Notes under the pieces: model-generated | Database searches by the model: none | What the model was told of the DNA's origin: nothing | The model's input: only the letters and a program-made list of their open reading frames with translations | Made by a program: the position numbers and the translations under genes | Shown here: positions 4 to 22,553 of the stretch, in pieces | How the letters are laid out: the number at the start of each line of letters is the position of its first letter | How positions within the stretch are numbered: position 1 is the first letter of the stretch | Assembly: GCF_001598795.1 (NCBI RefSeq) | Contig: NZ_BCZP01000022.1 | Coordinates: forward strand, 61,096 to 93,095 | Source of the DNA: Delftia acidovorans NBRC 14950 | GTDB lineage: Bacteria; Pseudomonadota; Gammaproteobacteria; Burkholderiales; Burkholderiaceae_C | Reading direction: 5' to 3' | DNA length: 32,000 nt

Positions 4-20
4 CATGGGTGTCTCCTCCT
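4..20 (-). promoter_or_regulatory. Shine-Dalgarno plus ATG of a leftward gene whose body lies outside the window
   Basis: The reverse complement of 1-25 reads acaaaAGGAGGagacacccATGgtt. Only two codons fall inside the window, so no product call is possible. Confidence 0.4.
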
Positions 21-87
21 TTTGTCTTGTGTCGGAAAAACATGCCCGGCACGCACGCCGGGCACGGCTGCATGGTTGGCCAGATAG

Positions 88-99
88 ATTATTAATAAT
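88..99. promoter_or_regulatory. Perfect 12-bp AT palindrome ATTATTAATAAT in a divergent promoter region; candidate operator
   Basis: The self-complementary 12-mer was read directly. It sits in an AT-rich island (about 80-125) between the leftward gene start and the dehydratase gene. GATAA repeats follow at 106-120. Confidence 0.3.
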
Positions 100-209
100 A
101 TAGGTGATAACGACGATAATAATCCGCGGCATCCGCCGCTATCCTGCCCCTCGACAAGGCAGCGCCTGCCTTCCGACCCCGCCCAGACCCTCTGCAAAGC
201 ACCCCACCC

Positions 210-1988
210 ATGACCGACCCCAAGACTCCCGATGGCGCTCCAGGCCATGACATCGCCCCCGCCGATGCGGCCACGGGCATCTCCAAGGGCCTGACCAACT
301 ACGGCGACCGGGGCTTTTCGCTGTTCCTGCGCAAGGCCTTCATCAAGGGCGCGGGCTATACGGACTCGGCGCTGCAGCGCCCCGTCATCGGCATTGCCAA
401 CACGGGCAGCAGCTACAACCCCTGCCACGGCAACGCGCCCCAGCTGATCGAGGCCGTCAAGCGCGGCGTCATGCTGGCAGGCGGCCTGCCCATGGACTTC
501 CCCACCATTTCGGTGCACGAAAGCTTCTCGGCGCCGACCAGCATGTACCTGCGCAACCTCATGTCCATGGACACCGAGGAGATGATCCGCGCCCAGCCCA
601 TGGATGCCGTCGTGCTCATCGGCGGCTGCGACAAGACGGTGCCGGCCCAGTTGATGGGCGCGGCCTCGGCGGGCATCCCGGCCATCCAGCTGATCACCGG
701 GTCGATGCTCACCGGCTCGCACCGCAGCGAGCGCGTGGGCGCCTGCACCGATTGCCGCCGCTACTGGGGCAAGTTCCGCGCCGAAGAGATCGACGCCGAA
801 GAGATCGCCGACGTGAACAACCAGCTGGTGGCCAGCGTGGGCACCTGCTCGGTCATGGGCACGGCCAGCACCATGGCCTGCATTGCCGAGGCGCTGGGCA
901 TGACCGTGCCCGGCGGCGCCTCGCCCCCCGCCGTCACGGCCGATCGGATCCGCATCGCCGAGCAGACCGGCACCGAGGCCGTGCGCATGGCGCGCGAGCG
1001 CCTGACCATCGACAAAATCCTCACGCCCGCCGCCTTCGAGAACGCCATGCGCGTGCTGCTGGCCATCGGCGGCTCCACCAACGGCATCGTGCACCTGGCC
1101 GCCATCGCGGGGCGCATGGGCTATGACATCGACCTCAAGGCCATGGATCGCATGGGCCGCGACACGCCCGTGCTGCTGGACCTCAAGCCCTCGGGCGACC
1201 ACTACATGGAGGACTTCCACCACGCGGGCGGCATGGCCACGCTGCTGCGCGAGCTCAAGCCCCTGCTGAACCTGGACGCCCTCACCGTCACCGGCCGCAC
1301 GCTGGGCGAAGAGATCGACCGCGCCGGCCCCGGCTTTGCGCAGGACGTGGTGCGCCCGCGCTCCAACCCCATCTACCCGCAGGGCGGCATCGCCGTGCTG
1401 CAGGGCAACCTGGCGCCGGGCGGCGCCATCATCAAGCAGTCGGCCGCCCATCCCCGGCTCATGGAGCACGAAGGCCGCGCCGTGGTCTTCGAGAACGCGG
1501 CCGACCTGGCCCACCGCATCGACAGCGACGATCTGGACGTGACGGCCGACGACATCCTCGTGCTCAAGAACATCGGCCCCAAGGGCGCGCCCGGCATGCC
1601 CGAGGCGGGCTACATCCCCATCCCGCGCAAGCTGGCCCGCGCGGGCATCAAGGACATCGTGCGCATCTCCGACGGGCGCATGAGCGGCACGGCCTTCGGC
1701 ACCATCGTGCTGCATGTCACGCCGGAGTCGGCCGTGGGCGGCCCGCTCGCCCATGTGCACAACGGCGACCGCATCACGCTGTCGGTGGCGCGGCGCGAGC
1801 TCACGCTGCAGGTCAGCGACGAGGAACTGGCCCGCCGCGCCCGGCTCCACCCGGTGACCGAGCCCACGGCCGAACGCGGCTACCGCAAGCTCTTTCTCAC
1901 CACCGTGAACCAGGCCGACCAGGGCGTGGACTTCGACTTCCTGCGCTGCGCGACCGAACGCGGCACCATTCCCGGCCCGCGCGAATAG
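210..1988 (+). CDS. IlvD/Edd family dehydratase (sugar-acid or dihydroxy-acid dehydratase type)
   Basis: 592-aa ORF with family hallmarks: PVIGIANTGSSYNPCH, GGCDKTVPAQLMG, GTCSVMGTASTM, GGSTNGIVHL and ISDGRMSGTA. The linked GntR regulator suggests sugar-acid catabolism rather than ilvD proper. Confidence 0.93.
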   Translation: MTDPKTPDGAPGHDIAPADAATGISKGLTNYGDRGFSLFLRKAFIKGAGYTDSALQRPVIGIANTGSSYNPCHGNAPQLIEAVKRGVMLAGGLPMDFPTISVHESFSAPTSMYLRNLMSMDTEEMIRAQPMDAVVLIGGCDKTVPAQLMGAASAGIPAIQLITGSMLTGSHRSERVGACTDCRRYWGKFRAEEIDAEEIADVNNQLVASVGTCSVMGTASTMACIAEALGMTVPGGASPPAVTADRIRIAEQTGTEAVRMARERLTIDKILTPAAFENAMRVLLAIGGSTNGIVHLAAIAGRMGYDIDLKAMDRMGRDTPVLLDLKPSGDHYMEDFHHAGGMATLLRELKPLLNLDALTVTGRTLGEEIDRAGPGFAQDVVRPRSNPIYPQGGIAVLQGNLAPGGAIIKQSAAHPRLMEHEGRAVVFENAADLAHRIDSDDLDVTADDILVLKNIGPKGAPGMPEAGYIPIPRKLARAGIKDIVRISDGRMSGTAFGTIVLHVTPESAVGGPLAHVHNGDRITLSVARRELTLQVSDEELARRARLHPVTEPTAERGYRKLFLTTVNQADQGVDFDFLRCATERGTIPGPRE

Positions 1989-1991
1989 TCC

Positions 1992-2771
1992 ATGCCAGGC
2001 AGCGCGGCACGCCCGCCATGCCCAGTGAAGGCCATCAGTTCGGACAAAATGGCGTTTTTGTCCCAACCGCCTGTCTTGATGGTCGCTGCCGCCTCACTGC
2101 CGATTTCCCTGGATGCCGAACCCGCCCCCGCAGCCGACGCCCTGGGCGCCATGGTGGCCGCGCTGGAAGAGGACGTGGTCTTCGGCCGGCTGCACCCGCG
2201 CGAGCGCCTGGTTGAAGACGACCTCATGGCCCGATTCGACGTCAAGCGCCACATCGCCCGCGAGGCCCTGGCCGCGCTGGACCGCATGGGCCTCATCGAG
2301 CGCCGCAAGAACGTCGGCGCCCTGGTGCGCTCCTTCTCCACCCAGGAAGTGCAGGAGCTGTACGAGCTGCGCGGCATGCTCGAAGTCGAGGCCGCGCGCA
2401 AGATCCCCCTGCCCGTTCCCCCCGAAAGCCTGGACCGCCTGACCGCCATCCAGCAGCAGCACGACGCCGCCGTGGCCGAAGGCAACGCGCGCCTGGTGTT
2501 CCGCATCAACCTGGCCTTTCACCAGGAACTGTTTGCGCTGGCGGGCAACGACACGCTGCACAAGGCCATCACCGAATACGCGCGCCAGACCCACCCCATC
2601 CGCTTCGCCTCCCTGGTCTCGGCCGACTACCGCGAGCGCGCGCGCCAGGAACACTGGCAAATGATCGAAGCCCTGCGCGCCCAGGACCGCGACGCACTGG
2701 TGCGCCTGTGCGCCGAGCACCTGCTGCCCTCACGCGATGCGTATCTGAATGCGCAGTTGCAGCGGTTGTAG
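1992..2771 (+). CDS. GntR family transcriptional regulator (FadR/FCD subfamily)
   Basis: Winged-HTH segment RLVEDDLMARFDVKRHIAREALAALDRMGLIERRKNVGALV followed by a helical FCD-like C-terminus. The start is uncertain: in-frame ATGs at 1992, 2049, 2079 and 2151 are all possible. Confidence 0.82.
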   Translation: MPGSAARPPCPVKAISSDKMAFLSQPPVLMVAAASLPISLDAEPAPAADALGAMVAALEEDVVFGRLHPRERLVEDDLMARFDVKRHIAREALAALDRMGLIERRKNVGALVRSFSTQEVQELYELRGMLEVEAARKIPLPVPPESLDRLTAIQQQHDAAVAEGNARLVFRINLAFHQELFALAGNDTLHKAITEYARQTHPIRFASLVSADYRERARQEHWQMIEALRAQDRDALVRLCAEHLLPSRDAYLNAQLQRL

Positions 2772-2805
2772 GTGAAGTCCTTAGCTGGGCGGGCAGTGCA
2801 GCCCC

Positions 2806-3639
2806 TCAGTCCCGAGCCGCCCCCAACCTCCCCCGGTACGCCGCAGGCGTCTCCCCGAACGTGCGCCGGAACAGCCCGATGAAGGCGCTGGCCGTGGCGT
2901 AGCCCAGGTCCAGCGCGATGTTCGTTACCGGCGCGCCGGCGGCCAGCATCTCCAGCGAGCGCATCAGCCGTGCGCGCTGGCGCCAGGCGGTGAAGCTGAA
3001 GCCGGTTTCCGAGACAAAGCGCCGGCTCAGCGTGCGCGAGCTGACCGCTGCCCAGCGCGCCCAGGCCTCCAGGTCGCGGGCATCGGCCGGGTCGGCGATC
3101 AGCGCGCGGGCGATGCGCTGCAGGCGCGGGTCGGCGGGCAGGGGCAGGCCCAGGGGCTCCACGGGCAGGGTGCGGATCTCGTCCAGGATCACCGCCATCA
3201 CATGGGCGCGGGCCTGGTCCGCCGAAGGGCCTGGTTGCACGGGCTGCGTTGTGGGCACGCCTTGCTGCCATCCCCAGCCGGCGGCGCGCAGCACGGCCTC
3301 ACGCAGCAGGCCCGAGGTGCGGATGGCGCAGGGCCGCTGCGGCAGGTCGGCGCAGGCCGGCTCCGCCACATAGACGCTCCAGCCGTGGAAGGGACCATGT
3401 GAGCGGCCCGAATGCAGCTGGTGCGGCGGCAGCCACACGGCATGGATGGCGGGCACCACCCAGACCGCGTCTTCCACGCCCACCGACAGCAGCCCGCGCA
3501 GCGAGCCGAACAGCTGGCCGCGCGCGTGGCGGTGCGGCTCGGAGGCCAGTTCCTCGTCCTGGTTGCCCACGGCCGCGATCAGCACGGGGCCATCGGCACG
3601 GTTCACATGGCTGACGAGTTCAAGAATGGCGTCGGGCAT
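2806..3639 (-). CDS. AraC family transcriptional regulator with N-terminal cupin-like sensor domain
   Basis: 277 aa. The C-terminal double HTH reads SSRTLSRRFVSETGFSFTAWRQRARLMRSLEMLAAGAPVTNIALDLGYATASAFIGLFRRTFGETPAAY. The N-terminus carries the HRHARGQL cupin-like motif. Confidence 0.9.
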   Translation of the reverse strand: MPDAILELVSHVNRADGPVLIAAVGNQDEELASEPHRHARGQLFGSLRGLLSVGVEDAVWVVPAIHAVWLPPHQLHSGRSHGPFHGWSVYVAEPACADLPQRPCAIRTSGLLREAVLRAAGWGWQQGVPTTQPVQPGPSADQARAHVMAVILDEIRTLPVEPLGLPLPADPRLQRIARALIADPADARDLEAWARWAAVSSRTLSRRFVSETGFSFTAWRQRARLMRSLEMLAAGAPVTNIALDLGYATASAFIGLFRRTFGETPAAYRGRLGAARD

Positions 3640-3709
3640 GGCGTCTTTGAGCTATTTGTTGGCTGATCCAGTCTACAGCCGCCAACGTCTTTGTTCTTAC
3701 GCTTGTGCC

Positions 3710-4372
3710 ATGCACACAGACAACACCGCCCTTGCAGAGCCGCCAGGCCCGGCCATCGACCTGGACTCGCTCTACGCCGCCCCGGCAGAAAGAATCCAGA
3801 AGGCCGTGCGCGACCGCCTGTCCGACTTCCACGAGGCCTATCTGCGCCAGGCCAGCTTCTTTTGCCTGGCCACGGCCGGCGAACGCGGCCTGGATGCCTC
3901 GCCGCGCGGCGGGCCGCCCGGCTTTGTGCAGGTGCTGGACGAGCGCACCGTGGCCTTTGCCGACTGGCCCGGCAACAACCGCATCGAATCCCTGCGCAAC
4001 CTGCAGGCCGATGACCGCCTGGCCATGCTCTTCCTGTTCCCGGGGCTGGACATCTTCCTGCGCATCAACGGACGCGGCCGCATCTCCACCGACCCCCATC
4101 TGCTGCAGGAGCTGAGCGAAGGCCGGGGCACGCCCAAGACCGCCACCGTGGTGCTGGTCGACGAGGTGCTGCTGCACTGCGGCAAAGCCATCCACCGCTC
4201 CGGCCTGTGGAACCCGTCAAGCCAGCTGGACCGCACCGCCCTGCCCACCGTGGGCCAGATGATGGCCGCCCTCACGCAGCTGGCCGATGCCACGGCGCCC
4301 GCCATGGATGCCGCCCAACAGGAGCAGGCCAACGCCCACTACGCCCATGCGGTCAGGCACGACCTGTACTGA
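3710..4372 (+). CDS. Pyridoxamine 5'-phosphate oxidase (PPOX) class FMN-binding flavoprotein
   Basis: The tracked ORF 3446-4372 overlaps the AraC gene. The internal ATG at 3710 (MHTDNTAL...) leaves a 70-bp divergent intergenic region. The body FFCLATAGERGLDASPRGGPPGFVQVLDERTVAFADWPGNNRIESLRNL...FLRINGRG is typical of PPOX-type split-barrel proteins. Confidence 0.78.
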   Translation: MHTDNTALAEPPGPAIDLDSLYAAPAERIQKAVRDRLSDFHEAYLRQASFFCLATAGERGLDASPRGGPPGFVQVLDERTVAFADWPGNNRIESLRNLQADDRLAMLFLFPGLDIFLRINGRGRISTDPHLLQELSEGRGTPKTATVVLVDEVLLHCGKAIHRSGLWNPSSQLDRTALPTVGQMMAALTQLADATAPAMDAAQQEQANAHYAHAVRHDLY

Positions 4373-4400
4373 TGCCCTGCTTTTTCCCAGGAACCAGGAC

Positions 4401-4805
4401 ATGCTGATCGATACCTCCCGCTTTCCCCTGGTCTACCTGCGCGAACCCGAAGCGCAGGCACCTGCAGACGCAGGCAACGGCAATGACGCATCGGCCGAAG
4501 CCCAGATCGAATCCCTGCTCGACCAGGGCCGGCAATTCGTGCTGCTCACCGATCACCTGCCCGGCGACCACCCCGAGGAAAGCCACGAAGAACGCAAGCA
4601 GCGCGCCCTGTTCTTCAAGCGCAACCGCGAACGCATGCGCCAGCTGTGCCGGGGCATGGTCGTCATCACGGGCGACCGCGCCGTGCCCACCGCCCTGCGC
4701 CTGGCCGTGCAAGGCATGGGCAAGGCGCTGGGCATGCGGGTTGCGTTCGTGCAGGGGGAGGATGAGGCGCAGGCGTGCTCGCGGGAGCTGCTTGGACAGG
4801 CGTGA
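4401..4805 (+). CDS. Hypothetical protein (134 aa)
   Basis: In-frame ATG at 4401 (MLIDTSRFPLVYLR...), 28 nt after the PPOX stop. Third codon positions are G/C-rich. No family recognised. Confidence 0.55.
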   Translation: MLIDTSRFPLVYLREPEAQAPADAGNGNDASAEAQIESLLDQGRQFVLLTDHLPGDHPEESHEERKQRALFFKRNRERMRQLCRGMVVITGDRAVPTALRLAVQGMGKALGMRVAFVQGEDEAQACSRELLGQA

Positions 4806-4882
4806 ACGCAGGCCAGGCGGAATGTGGGCACAAACAGACACATCTCCCTACAAGCTCCATACGGGGGAGTCGCATCGATAAA

Positions 4883-4901
4883 ATTATTGGGAATCATTCT
4901 C
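4883..4901. promoter_or_regulatory. Fur-box-like sequence upstream of the TonB-dependent receptor
   Basis: attattgggaatcattctc matches the 19-bp Fur consensus GATAATGATAATCATTATC at 13 of 19 positions by my hand alignment. It lies in an AT-rich patch and ends 15 nt before the receptor ATG. Confidence 0.35.
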
Positions 4902-4915
4902 ATCCAGTTTTCTCC

Positions 4916-7156
4916 ATGCACTCCCCCCTCCACACGCTGACCCCGATCGCCGGGGCCCTGGCCCTTCTTTTGTCTGCTGGCGCCGCATGGGCCCAGCCTG
5001 CCCCTTCCACGGCAACGGCCGCGCCCGAGCTGGGCACCGTCACCGTGGAGGCCAGCGCCGATGCGTCGGCTGAAGGCCTGTCCAGGCCCTACGCGGGCGG
5101 CCAGGTGGCGCGCGGCGGGCGGGCCGGGATTCTGGGCACGCGCGACAACATGGAGACGCCGTTCTCCATCACCAGCTACACCAACGAGCTGATCCAGGAC
5201 CGCCAGGCCAAGAGCGTGGGCGATGTGCTGCAGAACGATCCTTCCGTGCGCGTGGCGCGCGGCTTCGGCAATTTCCAGGAGTCCTACTTCGTGCGCGGCT
5301 TCGTGCTGGGCTCGGACGACGTGGCCTACAACGGCCTGTACGCCCTGCTGCCGCGCCAGTACATCGCCACCGAGCTGTTCGAGCGCGTGGAGCTGCTGCG
5401 CGGCGCATCGGCTTTTCTGATGGGCGCCAGCCCCAATGGCGGCGGGCTGGGCGGCAACATCAACCTGCTGCCCAAGCGCGCGGGCACTGATCCGCTGTCG
5501 CGCGTGACGGCAGGCATTGCCAGCGGCGGCCAGGCCTTCGTGGCGGCCGACGTGAGCCGGCGCTTCGGCCCCGACCAGGCCACGGGCATCCGCCTGAACG
5601 CTGCGCACCGGGGCGGCGATACGGCCATCGACCAGGAAAGCTCCAAGCTCGATCTGTTGTCCGTGGGCATGGACTGGCGCAGCCGCAATGTGCGCCTGTC
5701 GGGCGACATCGGCTGGCAGGACAACCGCCTCAAGCGCACGCGCACCAATGTCACGCCGGGCGCAGGGCTGGCGGCCATTCCTGCGGCGCCCGATGCTTCC
5801 TCCAACTGGGCCCAGCCCTGGACCTATTCCGACGAGCGCGACCTGTTCGGCACGCTGCGCGGCGAATGGGACATCAACAGCAACGTGACGGCCTGGGCCG
5901 CCTACGGCCTGCGCCGCAGCTCCGAGAACAACTCGCTGGCCAACATCACGCTGGCGGCGGCCGGCAATGGCGCGGCCACCACCAGCCGCTTCGACAACGC
6001 CCGCAAGGACCGCGTGAGCACGGGCGAGCTGGGCGTGCGCGCACGCCTGCAGACGGGCGATGTGGGCCATGAGATCGTCGCCAGCTATTCGGCCTTCGAC
6101 CTCAAGGTCTACAACGCCTATGGCATGAGCACCGGCGGGGGCAGCAACACGCTGGCCACCAATCTCTACGACCCGCGCTACTACGCGATCACGCCGCTCA
6201 ACTACCTGGGCAACGACCTGTCCAACCCCGCCTACAACCGGGGCACGCGCCTGAACAGCTTTGCGCTGGGCGACACGCTGTCGCTGATGGACGGCCGCAT
6301 GCTGGTGACGGCCGGCGTGCGCCGCCAGACGATAGAGACCGACTCGGTGAGCTACCGCCTCGTCAGCAACGGCGCCGTCACCAGCCAGGGCGGCGTGCGC
6401 ACGGCCTATGACCAGAGCCGCACCAGCCCGGTGCTGGGCGCGGTGTTCAAGCTCACGCCCCAGGTATCGCTGTACGGCAACTACATCGAGGGACTGGCCC
6501 AGGGCGACACGGCGCCGGCCAAGTCGGGCGACACCATCATCGCCAACGCGGGCCAGCAGATGTCGCCCTACGTGACCAAGCAAAAGGAAGTGGGCATCAA
6601 GTACGACGGCGGCAAGCTGGGCGGCGGCCTGGCCTTCTTCTCCACCGACAAGCCGCGCTCGCTGATCGACGGCAACCTCTTCACCTCGGCCGGCAAGGAC
6701 CGTCACCAGGGCGTGGAATTCAACGTCTTCGGCGAACCCATGCGCGGCCTGCGCCTGCTGGGCGGCGCCACCTGGCTGGACGCCAGGCAGCAAAGCACGG
6801 GCCGCGCCACCACCGACGGCAAGCGCGTCATCGGCGTGCCGCGCTTCCAGGCCACGGCGGGCGTGGAATGGGATGTGCCGGGCATCAACGGCCTGGCGCT
6901 GGACGGCCGCCTGGTGCACACAGGCGCCAGCTACGCCAACGACGTCAACACCCTGCGGGTGGCCGGATGGAACCGCCTGGACCTGGGCGTGCGCTACATG
7001 ACCGAAGTGCAGGGCAAGCTGCTCACGCTGCGCCTGCGCGTGGACAACGCGACGGACCGCAACTACTGGGCCTCCGTGGGCGGCTACCCGGGTTCGGGCT
7101 ACCTGACGGTGGGCGGTCCGCGCACGTTCTCGCTGAGTGCGAGTGTGGATTTCTAA
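4916..7156 (+). CDS. TonB-dependent (siderophore-type) outer-membrane receptor
   Basis: Start taken at MHSPLHTLTPIAGALALLLSAGAAWAQ (signal peptide). It has a TonB-box-like GTVTVEA, the plug motif ETPFSITSYTNELIQDRQAKSVGDVLQNDPSV, beta-barrel repeats and a C-terminal aromatic residue (SASVDF). There is no N-terminal signalling (STN) extension. Confidence 0.93.
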   Translation: MHSPLHTLTPIAGALALLLSAGAAWAQPAPSTATAAPELGTVTVEASADASAEGLSRPYAGGQVARGGRAGILGTRDNMETPFSITSYTNELIQDRQAKSVGDVLQNDPSVRVARGFGNFQESYFVRGFVLGSDDVAYNGLYALLPRQYIATELFERVELLRGASAFLMGASPNGGGLGGNINLLPKRAGTDPLSRVTAGIASGGQAFVAADVSRRFGPDQATGIRLNAAHRGGDTAIDQESSKLDLLSVGMDWRSRNVRLSGDIGWQDNRLKRTRTNVTPGAGLAAIPAAPDASSNWAQPWTYSDERDLFGTLRGEWDINSNVTAWAAYGLRRSSENNSLANITLAAAGNGAATTSRFDNARKDRVSTGELGVRARLQTGDVGHEIVASYSAFDLKVYNAYGMSTGGGSNTLATNLYDPRYYAITPLNYLGNDLSNPAYNRGTRLNSFALGDTLSLMDGRMLVTAGVRRQTIETDSVSYRLVSNGAVTSQGGVRTAYDQSRTSPVLGAVFKLTPQVSLYGNYIEGLAQGDTAPAKSGDTIIANAGQQMSPYVTKQKEVGIKYDGGKLGGGLAFFSTDKPRSLIDGNLFTSAGKDRHQGVEFNVFGEPMRGLRLLGGATWLDARQQSTGRATTDGKRVIGVPRFQATAGVEWDVPGINGLALDGRLVHTGASYANDVNTLRVAGWNRLDLGVRYMTEVQGKLLTLRLRVDNATDRNYWASVGGYPGSGYLTVGGPRTFSLSASVDF

Positions 7157-17882: not shown

Positions 17883-19670
17883 ATGAATCTCCGCACCTGG
17901 ACCGTCAAGACCAAGCTCTACGCCGCCTTTACCGCCCTGGCTTTACTGGTCGCACTGGTTTCCGTATCTGCCCTTCATGCGCTGGACGGTTCCGACCGCA
18001 ACCTGACGCAGTTCGTCGACGGCGTGAACGCCCGCGCCCATCTGGCCGAACAGGTGCGCGCGGCCGTGGACAGCCGCGCCATCGCGGCGCGCAACCTGGT
18101 GCTGGTGAACACGCCAGCCGATCTGGACATGGAAAAAACGGCCGTGTACGCCGCCCATGCTGCGGTCAAGTCCCACCTGGACCAGCTCAAGGCCCTTGTG
18201 GCCGCGCCCGGGGTGGGCGAGGAGGCTCGCGCCCTGGTCGCCCGCATCGACCAGATAGAGCAGCGCTACGGCCCGGTGGCGCTGGACATCGTTTCGCTGG
18301 CGCTGCGCCAGCAAAGGGACGAGGCCATTGCCAAGATGAACAGCGAGTGCCGGCCGCTGCTGGCCCAGCTGATCGCGGCCACCGACGAGTACAGCCGGCT
18401 CACGCGCCAGCACGCCCAGGTCATGGTGGAGCAGGCCACGCAGTCCTATGTGCAGCAACGCAACATGCAGATCGGCGTGAGCGCGGTCGCCTTCGTGCTG
18501 GCCCTGCTCATGGGCCGGCTGATCGCACGCGGCCTGACACGCGCGCTGGGGGCCGAGCCTGCCCAGCTCGGTGAAGTCGCCCGCCAGATCGCCGACGGCA
18601 ACCTCGACCCCGGACTGGTGCGCAGCGAAGCGCCCGCAGGCAGCGTGCAGGCCTCGCTCAACGCCATGCACCAGAGCCTGGCCAGCGTGGTCAGCGATGT
18701 GCGCAACAACGCCGACAGCGTGGCCGTGGCCAGCGAGCAGATCGCCAAGGGCAATGCCGACCTGAGCCGCCGCACCGAGCAGCAGGCCAGCGCGCTGCAG
18801 GAAACCGCAGCCTCCATGGACGAACTGTCTTCCACCGTGCAGCAGAACGCGGACAACGCGCGCCAGGTCAACCAGCTCGCGCGCGGCGCCAGCCAGGTGG
18901 CGGTCAAGGGCGGCGCCGTGGTGCAGGAAGTAGTGGGCGCCATGCAGGACATCCATGCCAGCTCGCGCCAGATCGGCGACATCGTGGGCGTGATCGACTC
19001 CATCGCCTTCCAGACCAACATCCTGGCCCTGAACGCCGCCATCGAGGCCGCGCGTGCCGGCGAGCAGGGCAAGGGCTTCGCCGTGGTGGCCGCCGAGGTA
19101 CGCACCCTGGCCCAGCGCAGCGCGCAGGCCGCCCGCGAGATCAAGCAGCTCATCACTGACAGCGCCACGCGCGTCAGCCAGGGCGCGGAGCTGGCCGACC
19201 AGGCCGGCGCCACCATGGCCGAGGTGCTGCAATCCATACAGCGCGTGACCGACCTCATGGGCGAGATCAGCAACGCCAGCGACGAGCAAAGCGCCGGTGT
19301 GGCCCAGGTCGGGCAGGCCATGAGCCAGATGGACCAGGTCACGCAGCAAAACGCCGCCCTGGTGGAGGAAAGCGCGGCGGCGGCCTCCAGCCTCAAGTCC
19401 CAGGCCCAGCGCCTGGTGCAGGCCGTGGCCATCTTCCGCCTGGGCCATCAGGGCAATGTGCCCCAGCAGCCGGGTTTTCAGGCGCCGCTGCCGGCGTCCG
19501 TGCCCATGCGCGCGGCCACGGCATCTGCGTTGGCGCCAGCCAAGCCTGCACGTGCACCTGCTTCTGCTCCTGCCCCCGTGCGGACGGCAGCTGCTGCTCG
19601 CACCTCGCCCCCTGCACGCATCGCTGCGGCCAGCCCGCCTGCCGAATCGCAGGACTGGACCAGCTTCTGA
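17883..19670 (+). CDS. Methyl-accepting chemotaxis protein (four-helix-bundle sensor, HAMP, MA domain)
   Basis: Start at [26 protein letters not shown], with GGAAAG 6 nt upstream. The highly conserved signalling hairpin is [42 protein letters not shown] long Ala/Pro tail ends in DWTSF. Confidence 0.92.
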
Positions 19671-19688
19671 GGCCGGGAATCCGCACGC

Positions 19689-20840
19689 ATGCGCCGCTAC
19701 CGCTCCTGCACCGCGCCCCTGGACAAGGCTGCGCAGGTGCGCGAACTGGAAGAGTTCTTCCGCGGGCAAAACCCCATCGACCTCGCTGCGGCCGACTGGC
19801 ACACGCGCATGGAGCAAGGCCTGACCGCCGAGGAAGAAGCCGAATTCACTGAATGGCTGGCAGCCAGCACGGCGCACGAGGCTGCCTTGCGCCACCTGGG
19901 CCAGAGCCTGGCGGCAGCGCGGTCCACTCCCCCCGAACAGGTGGCACGCCTGCGCGCGGAGCAGGCACGCAGGCGCTCGCAGTCGGCGCCTCACGCACAC
20001 CCGGAACCGGCCCCGCAGCGCCCGTCCTCCGAAGAGCGCCAAGGCTGGAGCTGGTCCCGCCTGCTGCCGCGCCCTGCCCTGGCGGCCCTGTGCTGCACGG
20101 TGGCCCTGGTCCTGACCCTGGTCCTGGCCGTGGGCGTGGGCTGGCACCAGTGGCAGCAGCAACCCACCTTCACCAGCAGCCACCTGACCCCACGGGGCCA
20201 GGCCAGGACCATCACCTTGCCGGATGGCACCGCACTGTCCCTGGATGCCGATACCCAGGCGCAGGTGGCCCTGTACCGCGACCGGCGCGAGGTGCGCATC
20301 ACGCAAGGGCAGATCCTGTTTGCCGTGGCGCTCGACAGCGCCAGGCCCTTTCATGTGCTGGCCGGCCCGGCGCGCGTCACCGTGGGCGGCACGCGGTTTT
20401 CCGTGCGCTATCGCGCCACGGGCATGGAGGCGGGCAGCGTGCAGGTAGCCGTGCAGGAAGGCCATGTGCGTGTGGCCGGCGCGCAAGGCACGGCAGCCGC
20501 TGGCGCCGCGCCCGCCGCCCTGGTCGCGGGCCAGGCCCTGAGCGTGTCGCCTGCAGGCGTGCTCGGTCCGGTGTCGGCTGTGGCGCCCGGCAGCATTGCG
20601 CTGTGGCGCAAGGGACTGATCCGCTTCGAGAACACGCCCCTGGCCGACGCCCTGGCCGAGCTGGAGCGCTACGGGCCGACCGGCCTGGTGGTGCACGACC
20701 CGGCCGTGGCGGCCCTGCGCATTGGCGGCACCTACCAGACCAATCGCCCCGCCGAGTTCGCACGCATGCTGGCCCAGATCCTGCCTGTCACTCTGGTGGC
20801 CGGGCCTGATGGCCAGACCGAGATTGCCGCTGCGCCTTGA
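19689..20840 (+). CDS. FecR family transmembrane sensor / anti-sigma factor-like protein
   Basis: 383 aa. The N-terminal AADWHTRMEQGLTAEEEAEFTEWLAASTAHEAALRHL is anti-sigma-like. It has a single TM segment (ALAALCCTVALVLTLVLAVGVGW). The FecR domain reads ITLPDGTALSLDADTQAQVALYRDRREVRITQGQILFAV...GTRFSV. The C-terminal part is LIRFENTPLADALAELERY. Confidence 0.85.
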   Translation: MRRYRSCTAPLDKAAQVRELEEFFRGQNPIDLAAADWHTRMEQGLTAEEEAEFTEWLAASTAHEAALRHLGQSLAAARSTPPEQVARLRAEQARRRSQSAPHAHPEPAPQRPSSEERQGWSWSRLLPRPALAALCCTVALVLTLVLAVGVGWHQWQQQPTFTSSHLTPRGQARTITLPDGTALSLDADTQAQVALYRDRREVRITQGQILFAVALDSARPFHVLAGPARVTVGGTRFSVRYRATGMEAGSVQVAVQEGHVRVAGAQGTAAAGAAPAALVAGQALSVSPAGVLGPVSAVAPGSIALWRKGLIRFENTPLADALAELERYGPTGLVVHDPAVAALRIGGTYQTNRPAEFARMLAQILPVTLVAGPDGQTEIAAAP

Positions 20841-20893
20841 GCACGGAGGCGGGGCGCCGGGGCCGCGCGGCGGTTGATCGAACAGCTCGGTCG

Positions 20894-21604
20894 TCAGCTT
20901 CCCCGCAGCCGGCGCCGGTGTTCGATCACCGTGCCCAGCAGAACCAGTCGGTTCCTGTCGCTGCGCAGCACGGCATGGTCTTCGTTGAGCGGTACCAGAT
21001 CAAAGACCTCGGTGCCGTCCTCTCCCACTCCGCGCACGCGGTACTTTCTGAGCAGCACCTGCCGCTTGCCATTCCTGGCCAGCACATGGTCGCCGGGCCG
21101 GGGGCTGGCCTGGGGATCGATCAGCACACGGTCGCCCTCGCGCAATTCGGGCGACATGGCATCGCCCTCCAGCGCAAGAAAAAACGCACCGGGCGATGCG
21201 TTGTCCTTGCCGAATTCGATGTCCAGGGTTTCAGCGGGATCGGGAAATGCGCCGTCATCTGCCAGGGATGCAGCCTGGGCATGCGAGAGAACGGGATATT
21301 GGCGCAATCCTTTGGGAAACTCGGGCAGATTGGTGCCGGGCGTGTCCCCATCTGGAAGCAGGGCCGGCAAATCGGAAACCATCTTCACCAGCCTGGGACT
21401 GATTTCGAAAAGCGAAACCTTCAAGCCCTTGGCATACGCAATGCCCGCCTCCAGGCTGATGGGCCGGTTGCCGCTTTGGTGCTGGGAGACCATGGAGGAG
21501 CCGCCAGGAATGCCGGCCTTCTCTGCGAACTCGGCCTTGCTTTTCACAGTAGAGAGCAGGCGCTTGAGGTTCGCCGCCTCTTGCTCGGTGGTCCAAACTT
21601 TCAT
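20894..21604 (-). CDS. Lambda CI-like repressor (XRE-type HTH plus S24 LexA-like peptidase domain) with substituted catalytic Ser and cleavage-site Gly
   Basis: 236 aa. The N-terminal FAEKAGIPGGSSMVSQHQSGNRPISLEAGIAYAKGLKVSLFEISPRL aligns with the lambda CI HTH region. The linker YPVLSHAQAAS aligns with lambda YPVFSHVQAGM. The C-terminal FFLALEGDAMSPELREGDRVLIDP...LLRKY aligns with FWLEVEGNSM...FKKL. Confidence 0.9.
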   Translation of the reverse strand: MKVWTTEQEAANLKRLLSTVKSKAEFAEKAGIPGGSSMVSQHQSGNRPISLEAGIAYAKGLKVSLFEISPRLVKMVSDLPALLPDGDTPGTNLPEFPKGLRQYPVLSHAQAASLADDGAFPDPAETLDIEFGKDNASPGAFFLALEGDAMSPELREGDRVLIDPQASPRPGDHVLARNGKRQVLLRKYRVRGVGEDGTEVFDLVPLNEDHAVLRSDRNRLVLLGTVIEHRRRLRGS

Positions 21605-21605
21605 G

Positions 21606-21664
21606 TAGCGATGCTAATAATCGAAACCATTAGCAATGCTTTTCATTTTTTGATAGCTATGCTA
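21606..21664. promoter_or_regulatory. Three operator-like palindromes TAGC-N3-GCTA in the 70-bp divergent intergenic region
   Basis: tagcGATgcta at 21606-21616, tagcAATgctt at 21631-21641 and tagcTATgcta at 21654-21664. Centre-to-centre spacings are 25 and 23 bp. The first lies 1 nt from the repressor ATG and the third 10 nt from the ATG at 21675. Confidence 0.6.
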
Positions 21665-21674
21665 AATTTTTCCC

Positions 21675-22379
21675 ATGAAAAATGCAGCCAGCAAAACCCT
21701 GTTCCACCGTTTCATCCCCGGCCTGCGCTTCCACTCGTTCTGGTACTACCAGGCACGCGGCTCCACGGGCAGGGTGCGCTGGGCGCGGCTGCCCATGGTG
21801 TCCGACGCCTGTGCGCTGGCCGATCCCCATGGCGCATGGTGGTGTGCGCAGCGGTGCGCCGCCGTTTTGGCGCAGCGGCCATGGCGGTCCATGCAACTGC
21901 CGCCCGGCCTGCCTGCGCAGCCGGATGCCCGCCAGATGGCGCATGTCCTGCAGCAATGGCTGCCGGGCTGGAGCGCTGCGCCGGCCAGCGTGCAGGTCTG
22001 TGCCCACGCGCTTGAGAACGGCGGCAGTGCGCTGCTGCAGCTGCATGTCTGGGCCAGGAGCGCGCCCAGCATTCTTTGGGCATGGGTGGTAGGGGTGGAG
22101 GTCCAGGCGCGCCAATCCCTTCAGGGGCTGGCGCCTGCGCCAGGCAGCCTGCAAGCCGGGCACCTGTCCCCGCGAGCCCTGCTGATCGTTCCCTTCGGCC
22201 AGGACATGCCCTGGGCCACCGGCCATACCGCCCGGGTTCGCCTGCATGCACGGGGACCTCAACCGCACGGGCCACATGAAGTGGTGGCGCAGGACGGCTG
22301 CTGGTTTGAAGACAGTGGCCTGGATGCCGTGTTGCTGAAGCCGGTCTTGCGCGTTCAGGATGAGCGCGTATCCCTATGA
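21675..22379 (+). CDS. Hypothetical Trp/Arg-rich protein (234 aa), divergent from the CI-like repressor
   Basis: By my hand count about 80 percent of the first 60 codons end in G or C, which fits coding sequence. The competing minus-strand ORFs translate to Arg/Ala/Pro junk. No Shine-Dalgarno sequence and no recognisable family motif. The start is uncertain (alternative ATG at 21795). Confidence 0.55.
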   Translation: MKNAASKTLFHRFIPGLRFHSFWYYQARGSTGRVRWARLPMVSDACALADPHGAWWCAQRCAAVLAQRPWRSMQLPPGLPAQPDARQMAHVLQQWLPGWSAAPASVQVCAHALENGGSALLQLHVWARSAPSILWAWVVGVEVQARQSLQGLAPAPGSLQAGHLSPRALLIVPFGQDMPWATGHTARVRLHARGPQPHGPHEVVAQDGCWFEDSGLDAVLLKPVLRVQDERVSL

Positions 22380-22382
22380 AGA

Positions 22383-22412
22383 GCCAGATGGGGCCAGATG
22401 GCGCCAGATGGC
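22383..22412. repeat. Three tandem 10-bp direct repeats GCCAGATGG(G/C)
   Basis: gccagatggg gccagatggc gccagatggc, read directly. The array begins 4 nt after the stop of the hypothetical ORF and lies about 140 nt upstream of the DsbG-like gene. Confidence 0.9.
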
Positions 22413-22553
22413 GCAAGCGATTTCCTATAACGATGGAACGCGGTGGATGCACTCCGACTCACACTGTCCGCAGCTGTTGCCACAGCACCAGGCGCTGCAC
22501 CCTTGCCGCACAGCGCCGCCCCCTCATTCATTCAACCGTTTCAAGGAGTTCCC

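Follow-up and report, generated by a model that had tools for sequence, protein, structure and literature searches.

What does a phage-type immunity switch control when it stands among ordinary cellular genes? The question is raised by a locus of Delftia acidovorans NBRC 14950 in which a CI-like repressor gene lies back to back with a 234-aa gene (here called the cargo gene). We analysed this locus within a stretch of 32,000 nucleotides (the window). The original prediction, made from the letters of the DNA alone, had read it as an isolated lambda-type switch with an unfamiliar cargo, either a domesticated module or the last remnant of a decayed prophage. The core of that reading is supported: the locus is an isolated CI-type repressor/operator unit with an unfamiliar cargo, which was acquired horizontally and does not belong to a prophage.

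The repressor and cargo genes

Two divergent genes make up the locus:

20894 to 21604, minus strand: CI-like repressor gene, 236 aa; an N-terminal HTH domain resembling that of lambda CI is joined by a linker to a C-terminal domain of the S24 fold
20927 to 21232, minus strand: S24-like C-terminal domain of the repressor, residues 125-226, the range of the Pfam match
21675 to 22379, plus strand: cargo gene, 234 aa; its product is cytoplasmic and rich in Trp, belongs to a family that has no annotation and probably has a papain-like fold

The CI-like repressor was confirmed at the position where it had been predicted. It matched Peptidase_S24 (PF00717; E 4.9e-11, 42.8 bits against a Pfam cutoff of 23.3), PHROG_4 ‘transcriptional repressor’ covered its residues 9-234 (E 7e-21), and annotated phage cI repressors were 26-34% identical to it across 87-96% of its length (tblastn). 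Pfam HTH models scored below threshold for this protein. The repressor aligned over its full length with lambda CI and was also aligned with LexA (alignment A4).

The cargo ORF had been predicted to be a gene, with the reservation that it might have no homologues. Homologues were found in 22 clusters, at identities down to 36%. G+C by codon position was of the coding type in the cargo ORF (0.73/0.54/0.77) and not in the overlapping alternative ORFs, and dN/dS among Delftia orthologues was 0.06-0.36. Coding-type G+C, homologues and a dN/dS below 0.4 ruled out a chance ORF in GC-rich DNA. The dN/dS of the repressor was 0.20-0.30 (dS about 0.05-0.18 in the comparisons of the pair); both genes are intact, and purifying selection acts on them.

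The cargo had been said to match no recognisable family, and this stood up to every database searched. The window protein had no match in Pfam, NCBIfam, PHROG or PADLOC, none among PDB sequences and none by sequence among curated peptidase families. None of the 59 cargo-family members analysed matched Pfam or NCBIfam, even at E up to 5, and ten distant members received no sequence-based family assignment. Neither the repressor nor the cargo matched a defence-system model of PADLOC-DB 2.0, and full-text literature searches returned nothing on the cargo family. The family is small (about 96 clusters at 50% identity). It was missing from INPHARED and PLSDB (blastn and tblastn, with the window protein and two distant members) and from IMG/VR.

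Operators and promoters in the intergenic gap

The gap between the two genes is exactly 70 bp long (21605-21674) and holds the following elements:

21606 to 21617, no strand: operator O1, TAGCGATGCTAA, found as repeat family D1 and by pattern search; it lies directly against the start codon of the repressor and overlaps the repressor's -10-like hexamer, TAGCAT
21631 to 21642, no strand: operator O2, TAGCAATGCTTT, the central, imperfect copy, found by repeat family and pattern search
21654 to 21665, no strand: operator O3, TAGCTATGCTAA, found by repeat family and pattern search; it overlaps the extended -10 of the putative cargo promoter
21640 to 21668, plus strand: putative cargo promoter, read by hand, with a -35 TTTTCA (21640-21645), a 17-bp spacer and an extended -10 TGcTAAATT (21660-21668)

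The three palindromic operators expected in the gap were thus present. The sequence TAGCnATGCTAA occurs three times, at 21606, 21631 and 21654. The copies are 25 and 23 bp apart, and every one of them forms a TAGC-N3-GCTA palindrome. With up to one mismatch, the pattern matched these three sites and no others in the 32-kb window.

A scan for sigma-70 consensus promoters, with a threshold of 9 of 12 positions, called none in the gap; the cargo promoter went uncalled because it matches at 8 of the 12. The candidate promoters of both directions were read by hand and are weaker than the scan threshold. The -10 of the cargo promoter ends 6 nt before the ATG and a Shine-Dalgarno sequence is absent, so the cargo mRNA is probably leaderless, as is probably that of the repressor. 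Since O1 abuts the repressor start and overlaps the -10-like hexamer, it is the putative site of autorepression.

The cargo ATG lies 10 bp beyond O3 with no ORF between them, and so the window has no Cro-type gene. Of the cI/cro architecture the locus has one part, the divergent genes sharing multiple operators, and lacks the other: without Cro, the arrangement is a repressor-operator gate and not a bistable switch.

The pair forms a horizontally acquired cassette

Comparison with other Delftia strains delimited the unit:

20854 to 22402, no strand: whole cassette, 1549 bp, comprising repressor, operators and cargo; occupied in some Delftia strains only
22383 to 22414, no strand: tandem repeat of a 10-bp unit, (GCCAGATGGC) x 3.2, TRF score 57, spanning the right junction of the cassette

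In the empty-site contigs L027-L032, blastn homology to the window ended at 20853 and restarted at 22403 (5646 and 5849 in L029). The fecR-like and dsbG-like genes that flank the pair were joined directly in these six contigs, with an unrelated 202-bp spacer in place of the cassette, which shows that the window does not lie within a larger prophage. The neighbours were cellular, as first read: an MCP gene and fecR (PF04773) on the left, followed by housekeeping genes, and on the right a DsbG-like thioredoxin-fold gene, a GST gene and then an RND efflux system. No prophage gene was found anywhere in the 32-kb window, where all genes tested were housekeeping; the window also had no tRNA, in agreement with the prediction, and no Rfam match. 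A hidden prophage was ruled out by the lack of a tRNA, the housekeeping genes and the empty-site strains.

The lower G+C noticed by eye was borne out by measurement. G+C fell to 0.62 at 21001-22000 from about 0.70-0.72 in the flanking DNA, and GC3 was 0.73-0.77 for the repressor and cargo genes compared to 0.82-0.95 for neighbouring genes. Together with presence/absence polymorphism at one site, this base composition supports the horizontal origin that had been suggested. No mobility signature flanked the cassette (integrase, att site or terminal repeats), and its ends carried neither direct nor inverted terminal repeats. The tandem repeat at the right junction was seen only in occupied-site loci, with one additional copy in L025. 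The contents of the fecR/dsbG intergenic site vary by strain. One variant, L025, holds a low-GC PifA homologue (E 1.8e-80) under a CI-like repressor and co-oriented with it, and retains a repressor fragment at 1503-1600.

Loss of the self-cleavage residues in the repressor

Alignment A4 placed two sites of the repressor against the catalytic positions of LexA and lambda CI:

21158 to 21160, minus strand: Ala149 codon, GCC, at the position of the S24 nucleophile Ser (LexA S119, lambda CI S149)
21269 to 21274, minus strand: Ala111-Ala112 codons, where lambda CI (A111-G112) and LexA (A84-G85) have the Ala-Gly site of self-cleavage

The nucleophile Ser is not present in the window repressor, which reads ‘GDAM’ where LexA has ‘GMSM’ and lambda CI ‘GNSM’. 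The Ala-Gly scissile bond is not present either (‘HAQAAS’ compared to ‘VQAGMF’ in lambda and ‘VAAGEP’ in LexA). In the region of the general-base Lys the repressor has R186-K187-Y; MAFFT set LexA K156 (CI K192) against R186 with K187 adjacent, and a one-residue shift of this alignment is possible.

Ala149 is kept in the orthologues L012, L023 and L034, and the position is also Ala in L025 and L005; the Ser two residues past it is Leu in L012. As the repressors of L005 and L025 are only 45-57% identical to that of the window, the shared Ser-to-Ala state is old and maintained rather than a product of recent decay. The Gly-to-Ala change of the cleavage site also occurs in the L025 repressor. The repressors of L006, L010, L011, L014 and L021 retain the S24 Ser, L021 retains the Ala-Gly site, and L005 has Ala-Gly without the Ser.

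Both replacements make induction of the RecA type unlikely, and induction by mitomycin C may fail. Judged from these residues, the window repressor is probably not opened by RecA-stimulated self-cleavage, and its S24-like domain probably serves only dimerisation and cooperativity.

Related loci and their contexts

The repressor/cargo unit recurs outside prophages across the Comamonadaceae. Genomes of Delftia, Comamonas and Acidovorax-like bacteria carry it at many chromosomal sites that are unrelated to one another and free of surrounding phage pseudogenes. These neighbourhoods, whose comparison had been suggested as a check, show that the pair is conserved as a unit. The concern that such pairs might be confined to intact prophages did not materialise: the homologous pairs lay in ordinary chromosomal or genomic-island contexts, and the cargo family was missing from the phage, virus and plasmid collections searched above.

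Close relatives of the cargo were without exception neighbours of an HTH repressor gene in divergent orientation. As a rule the repressor had an S24 domain, and a small Cro-like gene was frequently present too. Cro-like HTH genes of 75-97 aa preceded the cargo in L005, L006, L014 and L021, and in close relatives the cargo occupied the first early positions after Cro. Tandem arrays of 2-5 cargo paralogues were common among them; several tandem paralogues without an obvious immunity gene would be unusual for a toxin-type effector. No integrase or conjugation genes were found near close-clade modules. Among the repressors of other cargo loci the S24 C-terminal domain was 50-57% identical while the N-terminal domains diverged, and each N-terminal domain type (L001, L005, L006, L025) was paired with its own palindrome set in the equivalent gap.

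Distant members overlapped a Gp3-like ‘recombination directionality factor-like’ (RDF-like) gene at its stop codon, behind a YqaJ exonuclease gene, and lay in islands where they adjoined DUF932 and DUF2958. The census of these distant contexts is small, because the word-index profile search with alignment A2 recovered few distant members. Only 3 of some 12 distinct contexts had defence genes next to the module: the PifA homologue of L025, Lamassu LmuA/LmuC beside a cargo relative in L018 and, in L010, a CARF6-type set together with a PRTase and a methyltransferase. Matches to PADLOC models were thus confined to such neighbours (PifA, LmuA/LmuC and CARF6-type) at some of the loci.

Predicted fold and candidate active site of the cargo

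Structure prediction and a Foldseek search, suggested as a check along with the original prediction, point to a papain-like fold with moderate support. Papain-like cysteine peptidases or toxins accounted for 11 of the 20 top Foldseek PDB hits of the AlphaFold2 model (pLDDT 78.7, pTM 0.79), at probabilities of 0.63-1.00 and at TM-scores of only 0.35-0.50. The matches included staphopain, the Treponema TDE0362 protease domain, the PCAT1 C39 domain, BtaeB and CdiA-CT papain-like toxins. Among annotated viral hits, the best was AvrRpt2-like. The model has four extra N-terminal beta-strands. A model of the distant member P0115 reached a pLDDT of only 50.7 and was set aside.

In the model, Cys57 falls close to the beginning of helix 54-66. 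It is invariant in the 21 close members, and across the 59 family members the position is Cys in 34, Ser in 12, Ala in 9 and Gly in 4. Cys61 is present in 45 of the 59. Trp135, Gly140 and Glu142, all on a long strand, are invariant or nearly so across the family, in which no His is invariant (59 members). Trp135 would sit where the catalytic His is expected, a placement made by motif analogy and not by structural superposition. At position 173, 35 of 59 members have Asp; the window cargo has Pro. Because this putative active site is non-canonical (Cys57 constant only in the close clade, Trp at the presumed His position), the cargo may be a pseudo-peptidase that acts by binding and not by proteolysis.

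Discussion

Proposed mechanism and alternatives

We propose that the locus forms a self-contained conflict module, mobile and gated by its repressor, whose papain-fold cargo derives from the early region of integrative mobile elements, a reading to which we give an even chance of being correct. CI-type repressor dimers would bind the three operators in the divergent promoter region. As the operators are spaced like those of lambda OR, adjacent dimers would probably cooperate through the S24-fold C-terminal domain. Occupancy of O3 and O2 would block the cargo promoter, and occupancy of O1 would autoregulate the repressor. In relatives, the operators are followed by a Cro-like gene and as many as five cargo paralogues in tandem; since many of their repressors keep the S24 Ser, those units should be derepressed by DNA damage. 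In the window version Cro and the self-cleavage residues have been lost. Without RecA-stimulated self-cleavage another cue would be needed: the gate might respond to an antirepressor, or open when the repressor is titrated or is cleaved in trans. The cargo would then be a defence or exclusion-type effector, expressed only on opening of the gate, and a role in conflict between host, phage and mobile elements appears most likely.

A bolder form of this proposal is that the locus represents a new class of repressor-gated anti-phage or anti-mobile-element system, with a papain-fold protein, possibly a binding pseudo-peptidase, and with self-cleavage-dead variants that an invader cue (an antirepressor or titration by incoming operator DNA) would release in place of SOS. 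We regard this as speculative and improbable.

The cargo might instead serve the mobile element itself, in counter-defence, host takeover or the control of excision and recombination, the chromosomal cassettes being selfish hitch-hikers. The island contexts of distant members, which overlap the RDF-like gene behind YqaJ and lie near DUF932/DUF2958, agree with this idea, as do the first early positions after Cro and a tandem diversification typical of arms-race genes. However, stand-alone cassettes have no element to serve and are nevertheless under purifying selection in Delftia, the family is missing from plasmid and phage databases, and close-clade modules lack integrase and conjugation genes. 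We therefore judge this explanation unlikely.

A host-co-opted unit for DNA damage or stress, in which the cargo would serve repair, mutagenesis or growth arrest in the cell’s own damage response, seems to us a little less probable again. The architecture of the locus matches that of the FddR units (PMC13148647), and several paralogous modules retain the S24 Ser, some with Ala-Gly (L021; also L005, without the Ser). The window repressor, by contrast, has neither Ser nor Gly and hence no canonical RecA* sensing; the cassette is strain-variable and not core; cargos form diversified tandem arrays near defence genes; distant members sit in mobile islands beside the RDF-like gene; and the cargo has no similarity to repair proteins.

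Least probable is that the pair is a functionless relic, all that survives of a prophage or integrative element in decay (its immunity region and its first early gene) and on the way to being lost: the phage-CI-like repressor, the cI/cro-like layout of relatives, the missing Cro, Ser and Gly of the window copy, the absence of the cassette from many Delftia strains and the repressor fragment in L025 all fit such decay, but two intact genes under purifying selection (dN/dS 0.06-0.36 at dS of about 0.05-0.18), an old and maintained Ser-to-Ala state, a minimal unit at many unrelated sites without phage pseudogenes and a family missing from phage collections speak against it, and with it against the remnant option of the original prediction.

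Comparison with known systems

In its layout the locus resembles the lambda immunity region, which is ordered cI - OR1/2/3 - cro and includes cI-rexA-rexB. The repressor has the HTH and S24-fold domains of lambda CI, the genes diverge across a short gap with three palindromic operators (spacing about 24 and 23 bp in lambda OR), and the repressor mRNA is probably leaderless. In relatives the first gene of the opposing operon is a small Cro-like HTH gene, and in L025 the abortive-infection homologue PifA follows the repressor as rexAB follows cI. In contrast to lambda, the window has neither Cro nor a prophage, the product of the opposing gene (234 aa) belongs to an unannotated family, the operators measure 11-12 bp (17 bp in lambda), and the repressor lacks the equivalents of Ser149 and Gly112, which makes it comparable to an ind- repressor.

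In the model, the position of Cys57 near the start of the long helix may correspond to that of the nucleophile in the papain fold. Unlike papain-like peptidases and toxins, the cargo has no sequence match to a peptidase family and no conserved His, Trp135 instead occupying the presumed His strand; it also lacks both an immunity gene and a context of secretion, T6SS or CDI. The C39-like domain of HlyB is non-catalytic, and the cargo family likewise appears to have no complete catalytic triad. The varying contents of the fecR/dsbG site, with a PifA homologue in one case, recall F-plasmid pif and the ‘hot spots’ of defence islands, although the window cassette has no recognised defence gene.

Comparable units with S24 repressors are UmuDAb-ddrR of Acinetobacter and PrtR and AlpR of Pseudomonas. 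The Francisella FddR unit is self-contained and divergently transcribed, with a phage-like S24 repressor, a palindromic operator, a divergent gene of undescribed function and lateral transfer (PMC13148647). FddR still has every residue that RecA-mediated cleavage requires, and DNA damage induces it (PMC13148647). The locus described here shares with it the S24 repressor divergent from its target, the palindromic site in the shared promoter region, and conservation and transfer as a unit. It differs in the lost cleavage residues, in an unrelated cargo family with tandem paralogue arrays and in being strain-variable.

Significance

Phage-type repressor cassettes that stand alone are coming to be recognised as portable regulatory units, exchanged by cells and mobile elements. 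Here natural presence/absence polymorphism sets the cassette boundaries, and the repressor gene has been maintained despite loss of the SOS-sensing chemistry. The cargo family combines the lack of any annotation with a probable papain-like fold, tandem diversification and repeated nearness to defence genes. If the cargo is a defence or exclusion effector, it would represent a new effector family with a new triggering mode; if it is a pseudo-peptidase that acts by binding, the range of uses known for the papain fold would widen. With 1.5 kb, two genes and three operators, the unit is small enough for direct testing in Delftia or a heterologous host.

Results

A strain-variable repressor/cargo cassette

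The two genes under study were located in the window (G+C ~70%) as follows:

20894-21604, minus strand: repressor gene, 236 aa; the C-terminal part is Peptidase_S24 (PF00717, E 4.9e-11)
21675-22379, plus strand: cargo ORF, 234 aa; coding frame by GC per codon position

The original prediction described this back-to-back pair, a 70-bp gap with three operators, a G+C content lower than that of the flanks and ordinary cellular neighbours on both sides. All details of the arrangement were right, G+C was 0.62 in the locus vs. about 0.71 in the flanks, and the neighbours were borne out by window gene calls and family matches. The full-length repressor matches PHROG_4 ‘transcriptional repressor’, and it is 26-34% identical to annotated phage cI repressors over 87-96% of its length. 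Neither a tRNA nor an Rfam match was found in the window. Three alternative ORFs overlapping the cargo were non-coding by GC per codon position, and a 917-aa ORF antisense to the MCP and FecR genes (17943-20696, minus strand) was rejected as a GC-rich artefact (GC1 0.86 > GC3 0.75). The FecR-like anti-sigma gene (19689-20840) directly follows the MCP gene and has no adjacent fecI-type sigma factor or TonB receptor.

Delftia metagenome contigs were retrieved via the adjacent dsbG-like gene and the local genes were mapped onto them. The order fecR-repressor-cargo-dsbG was found in the window and in three loci (L012, L023, L034); L012 is the syntenic locus of Delftia acidovorans MMO-42, the closest relative of the window in the species-level genome set (cargo 97% identical). 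Six contigs (L027-L032) are empty sites, with fecR joined directly to dsbG. Homology with the empty sites ends at 20853 and restarts at 22403, and the 1549 bp between (20854-22402) replace an unrelated 202-bp spacer. The repressor/cargo pair is a discrete, strain-variable cassette. Terminal repeats flanking the 1549-bp segment were sought and none were found. A tandem repeat (GCCAGATGGC, 3.2 copies, 22383-22414) lies exactly at the right junction; it was present only in occupied-site loci, and its copy number differs in L025. A single exact copy also occurs within the cargo gene (21931-21940).

The site varies further. In contigs L024 and L026, a complete fecI-fecR-TonB-receptor cluster lies between cargo and dsbG. 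In L025, a Delftia metagenome contig with the same fecR/dsbG site, the repressor HTH domain and operators are unlike those of the window, and a small Cro-like ORF precedes the cargo. Directly downstream of the L025 CI-like repressor, in the same orientation, is a 718-aa, ~40%-GC KAP NTPase (1735-4920) identified by PADLOC as PifA (E 1.8e-80), an order reminiscent of lambda cI-rexAB. L025 also retains part of the C-terminal region of a window-type repressor, at 1503-1600.

The repressor/cargo unit at other loci

Cargo homologues formed 22 clusters (lowest identity 36%), and a profile search of 1.8 billion representatives gave 96 matches. According to the contexts of homologues and a tblastn map, an HTH repressor gene is oriented divergently to each cargo gene of the close clade. 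The S24-fold C-terminal domain is present in 9 of 10 repressor types (50-57% identical across loci), the exception being an HTH-only Delftia repressor of 85-87 aa. The N-terminal DNA-binding domains show no conservation from one type to another, and the gap palindromes are particular to each type, for example:

L006: TAACGAT-N-ATCGTT, two copies
L001: CTAGCAA-N4-TTGCT, two copies
L025: CTAGCC...GGCTAG

The first gene after the operators encodes a 75-97 aa HTH protein in L005, L006-L009, L014, L016 and L021-L022, which reads as a true cI/cro-like layout. The Cro-like genes of L005 and L006 have -10-like hexamers (TAACAT and TAGACT) placed relative to the start codon as in the window pair. Cargo genes are commonly tandem paralogues, mutually 32-45% identical, with two copies in L006, L010, L011 and L013. 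The second MMO-42 locus (L014, 10001-14400) has five around one repressor and Cro-like gene, so that this strain has six or more family members spread over two loci, with repressor specificity predicted to differ between them. The genes around homologous units are cellular and differ from locus to locus, and the cargo family had no match in INPHARED, IMG/VR or PLSDB. The pairing is retained outside prophages.

More distant relatives (25-31% identity) were found on an Acidovorax chromosome (L017) and in L018-L020. There the cargo relative overlaps the end of a Gp3-like ‘recombination directionality factor-like’ gene (PF18897), itself preceded by a YqaJ exonuclease gene. A DUF932 gene lies upstream in L017 and L018, with DUF2958 also in L018; downstream are an H-NS-like gene (L017) or an HTH_3 gene and YfjT (L018-L020). 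The coupling to the Gp3-like gene is translational, within genomic islands, in L017 (6618-11059) and L018 (2882-8349). The L018 relative adjoins Lamassu genes (LmuA, LmuC) and a 5096-aa RHS toxin, and the L010 module (7-6374) adjoins a CARF6-type candidate defence set, a PRTase and a type II methyltransferase. A second HTH-S24 protein (318 aa, canonical GTSMEP motif) stands beside the L010 module, and pieces of this same 318-aa protein lie beside the modules of L013, L014 and L015. The distant members point to a mobile-element origin. That the cargo is an early gene serving a mobile element seems unlikely.

Fold and conserved residues of the cargo protein

No curated family matched the cargo, and all family members are named ‘hypothetical protein’ in databases. 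An AlphaFold2 model built on a 21-sequence alignment was confident (pLDDT 78.7, pTM 0.79), and runs from four strands at the N terminus through a long helix (54-66) and two further helices to a sheet. Foldseek gave no match below E 1e-3 against the PDB; 11 of the top 20 PDB matches were papain-like cysteine peptidases or toxins (probabilities 0.63-1.00, TM-scores 0.35-0.50), and the best annotated viral match was AvrRpt2-like. The papain-like matches included:

TDE0362 protease domain; staphopains A, B and C; PCAT1 C39 domain
IdeS and IdeC; BtaeB and CdiA-CT papain-like toxins

Within the close clade, G-A-W-W-C57 is invariant and lies at the beginning of helix 54-66, the position of the nucleophile in the papain-like fold. 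Among 59 family members, position 57 is Cys in 34 and position 61 in 45. There is no invariant His, and Trp135 and Gly140 are strictly conserved; residues conserved at ≥90% include Gly16, Arg18, Phe19, Leu39, Pro40, Glu142, Leu169, Leu170, Trp180 and Gly208. Following the order of motifs in C39 (Cys helix, His strand, Asp strand), we infer that Trp135 would take the place of the catalytic His, and residue 173 (mostly Asp in the family, Pro in the window) that of the catalytic Asp. On this reading, the close clade may be a thiol enzyme of a non-canonical kind; more probably, the family is a pseudo-peptidase that acts by binding.

Operators and predicted promoters

The operator TAGCnATGCTAA (core TAGC-N3-GCTA) occurs three times in the gap, at 21606 (O1), 21631 (O2) and 21654 (O3); no other near-exact match occurs in the 32 kb. 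A Shine-Dalgarno sequence is missing before both start codons (21602-21617, 21660-21677), and each is preceded by a -10-like hexamer located at -12 to -7. The predicted cargo promoter would combine an extended -10 (TGcTAAATT) ending 6 nt before the ATG with a -35 (TTTTCA) 17 bp upstream; O3 would cover its spacer and extended -10, and O2 would touch its -35. The predicted repressor promoter (TAGCAT, -12 to -7 from the ATG) would lie within O1. It has no convincing -35 and is reminiscent of lambda PRM, which is activator-dependent and leaderless. Both hand-read promoters fell below the threshold of a sigma-70 consensus scan. The operator spacing (25 and 23 bp) would fit pairwise cooperative binding via C-terminal domains. 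The gate probably operates in this way, and early mRNAs without leaders may be typical of the family.

Self-cleavage residues of the repressor

The repressor was aligned with LexA, lambda CI and the repressors of other cargo loci. The window has G147-D148-A149-M150 vs. G-M-S119-M in LexA and G-N-S149-M in lambda CI. The motif around it, AMSPELREGD, pairs at every residue with the usual phage version, SMEPTIRDGD, so that Ala149 occupies the nucleophile position. The Ser two residues further on is Leu in L012 and is therefore not a conserved substitute nucleophile. The scissile-bond Gly is also lost, as the linker reads Q-A111-A112-S vs. Q-A111-G112-M in lambda. The general-base Lys position corresponds to R186-K187, the alignment being ambiguous between the two. 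Ala replaces Ser in the L005 and L025 repressors too (45-57% identical to that of the window), and Ser is kept in L006, L010, L011, L014 and L021; the Ser-to-Ala state is old and maintained. In LexA and CI, S119A, K156A and G85D give Ind- phenotypes. The window repressor should lack an autocleavage response to RecA*. That the cassette is a host DNA-damage unit appears rather improbable.

Discussion

The cassette differs from a lambda-type switch in two defining respects, having neither Cro nor a prophage, and its repressor differs from an autocleavable S24 repressor in two more, having neither the Ser nor the Ala-Gly. Because of these four differences it was filed under neither canonical class, and we read it as working like a CI gate while being a canonical member of neither. 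UmuDAb-ddrR and PrtR/AlpR are comparable self-contained repressor units, to which the regulatory half of the cassette is similar. That half also resembles the ‘self-contained divergently transcribed units’ described for Francisella FddR (PMC13148647). It is of a recognisable kind, a repressor/operator unit of phage CI type that stands apart from any phage. The cargo half represents a new family.

A functionless relic is quite improbable: cargo orthologues showed dN/dS of 0.06-0.36 and repressor orthologues 0.20-0.30, so both genes are under maintaining selection. A role in host/phage/mobile-element conflict would be the best-supported guess for the cargo, given the integrative-island ancestry, the stand-alone cassettes kept by selection, the tandem diversification and the recurrent defence-gene neighbours. 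The fecR/dsbG hot spot itself also hosts the repressor-PifA arrangement. We place the combination of a repressor-gated cassette and a conflict role for its cargo at about an even chance.

The original reading of the locus as an isolated lambda-type switch with an unrecognised cargo and no phage genes was supported and sharpened. Our verdict is an orphan gate of the CI type whose S24 domain is probably dead and which would control a family that lacks annotation and has a probable papain fold. The cassette is a compact, directly testable candidate and not an anomaly that upsets expectations.
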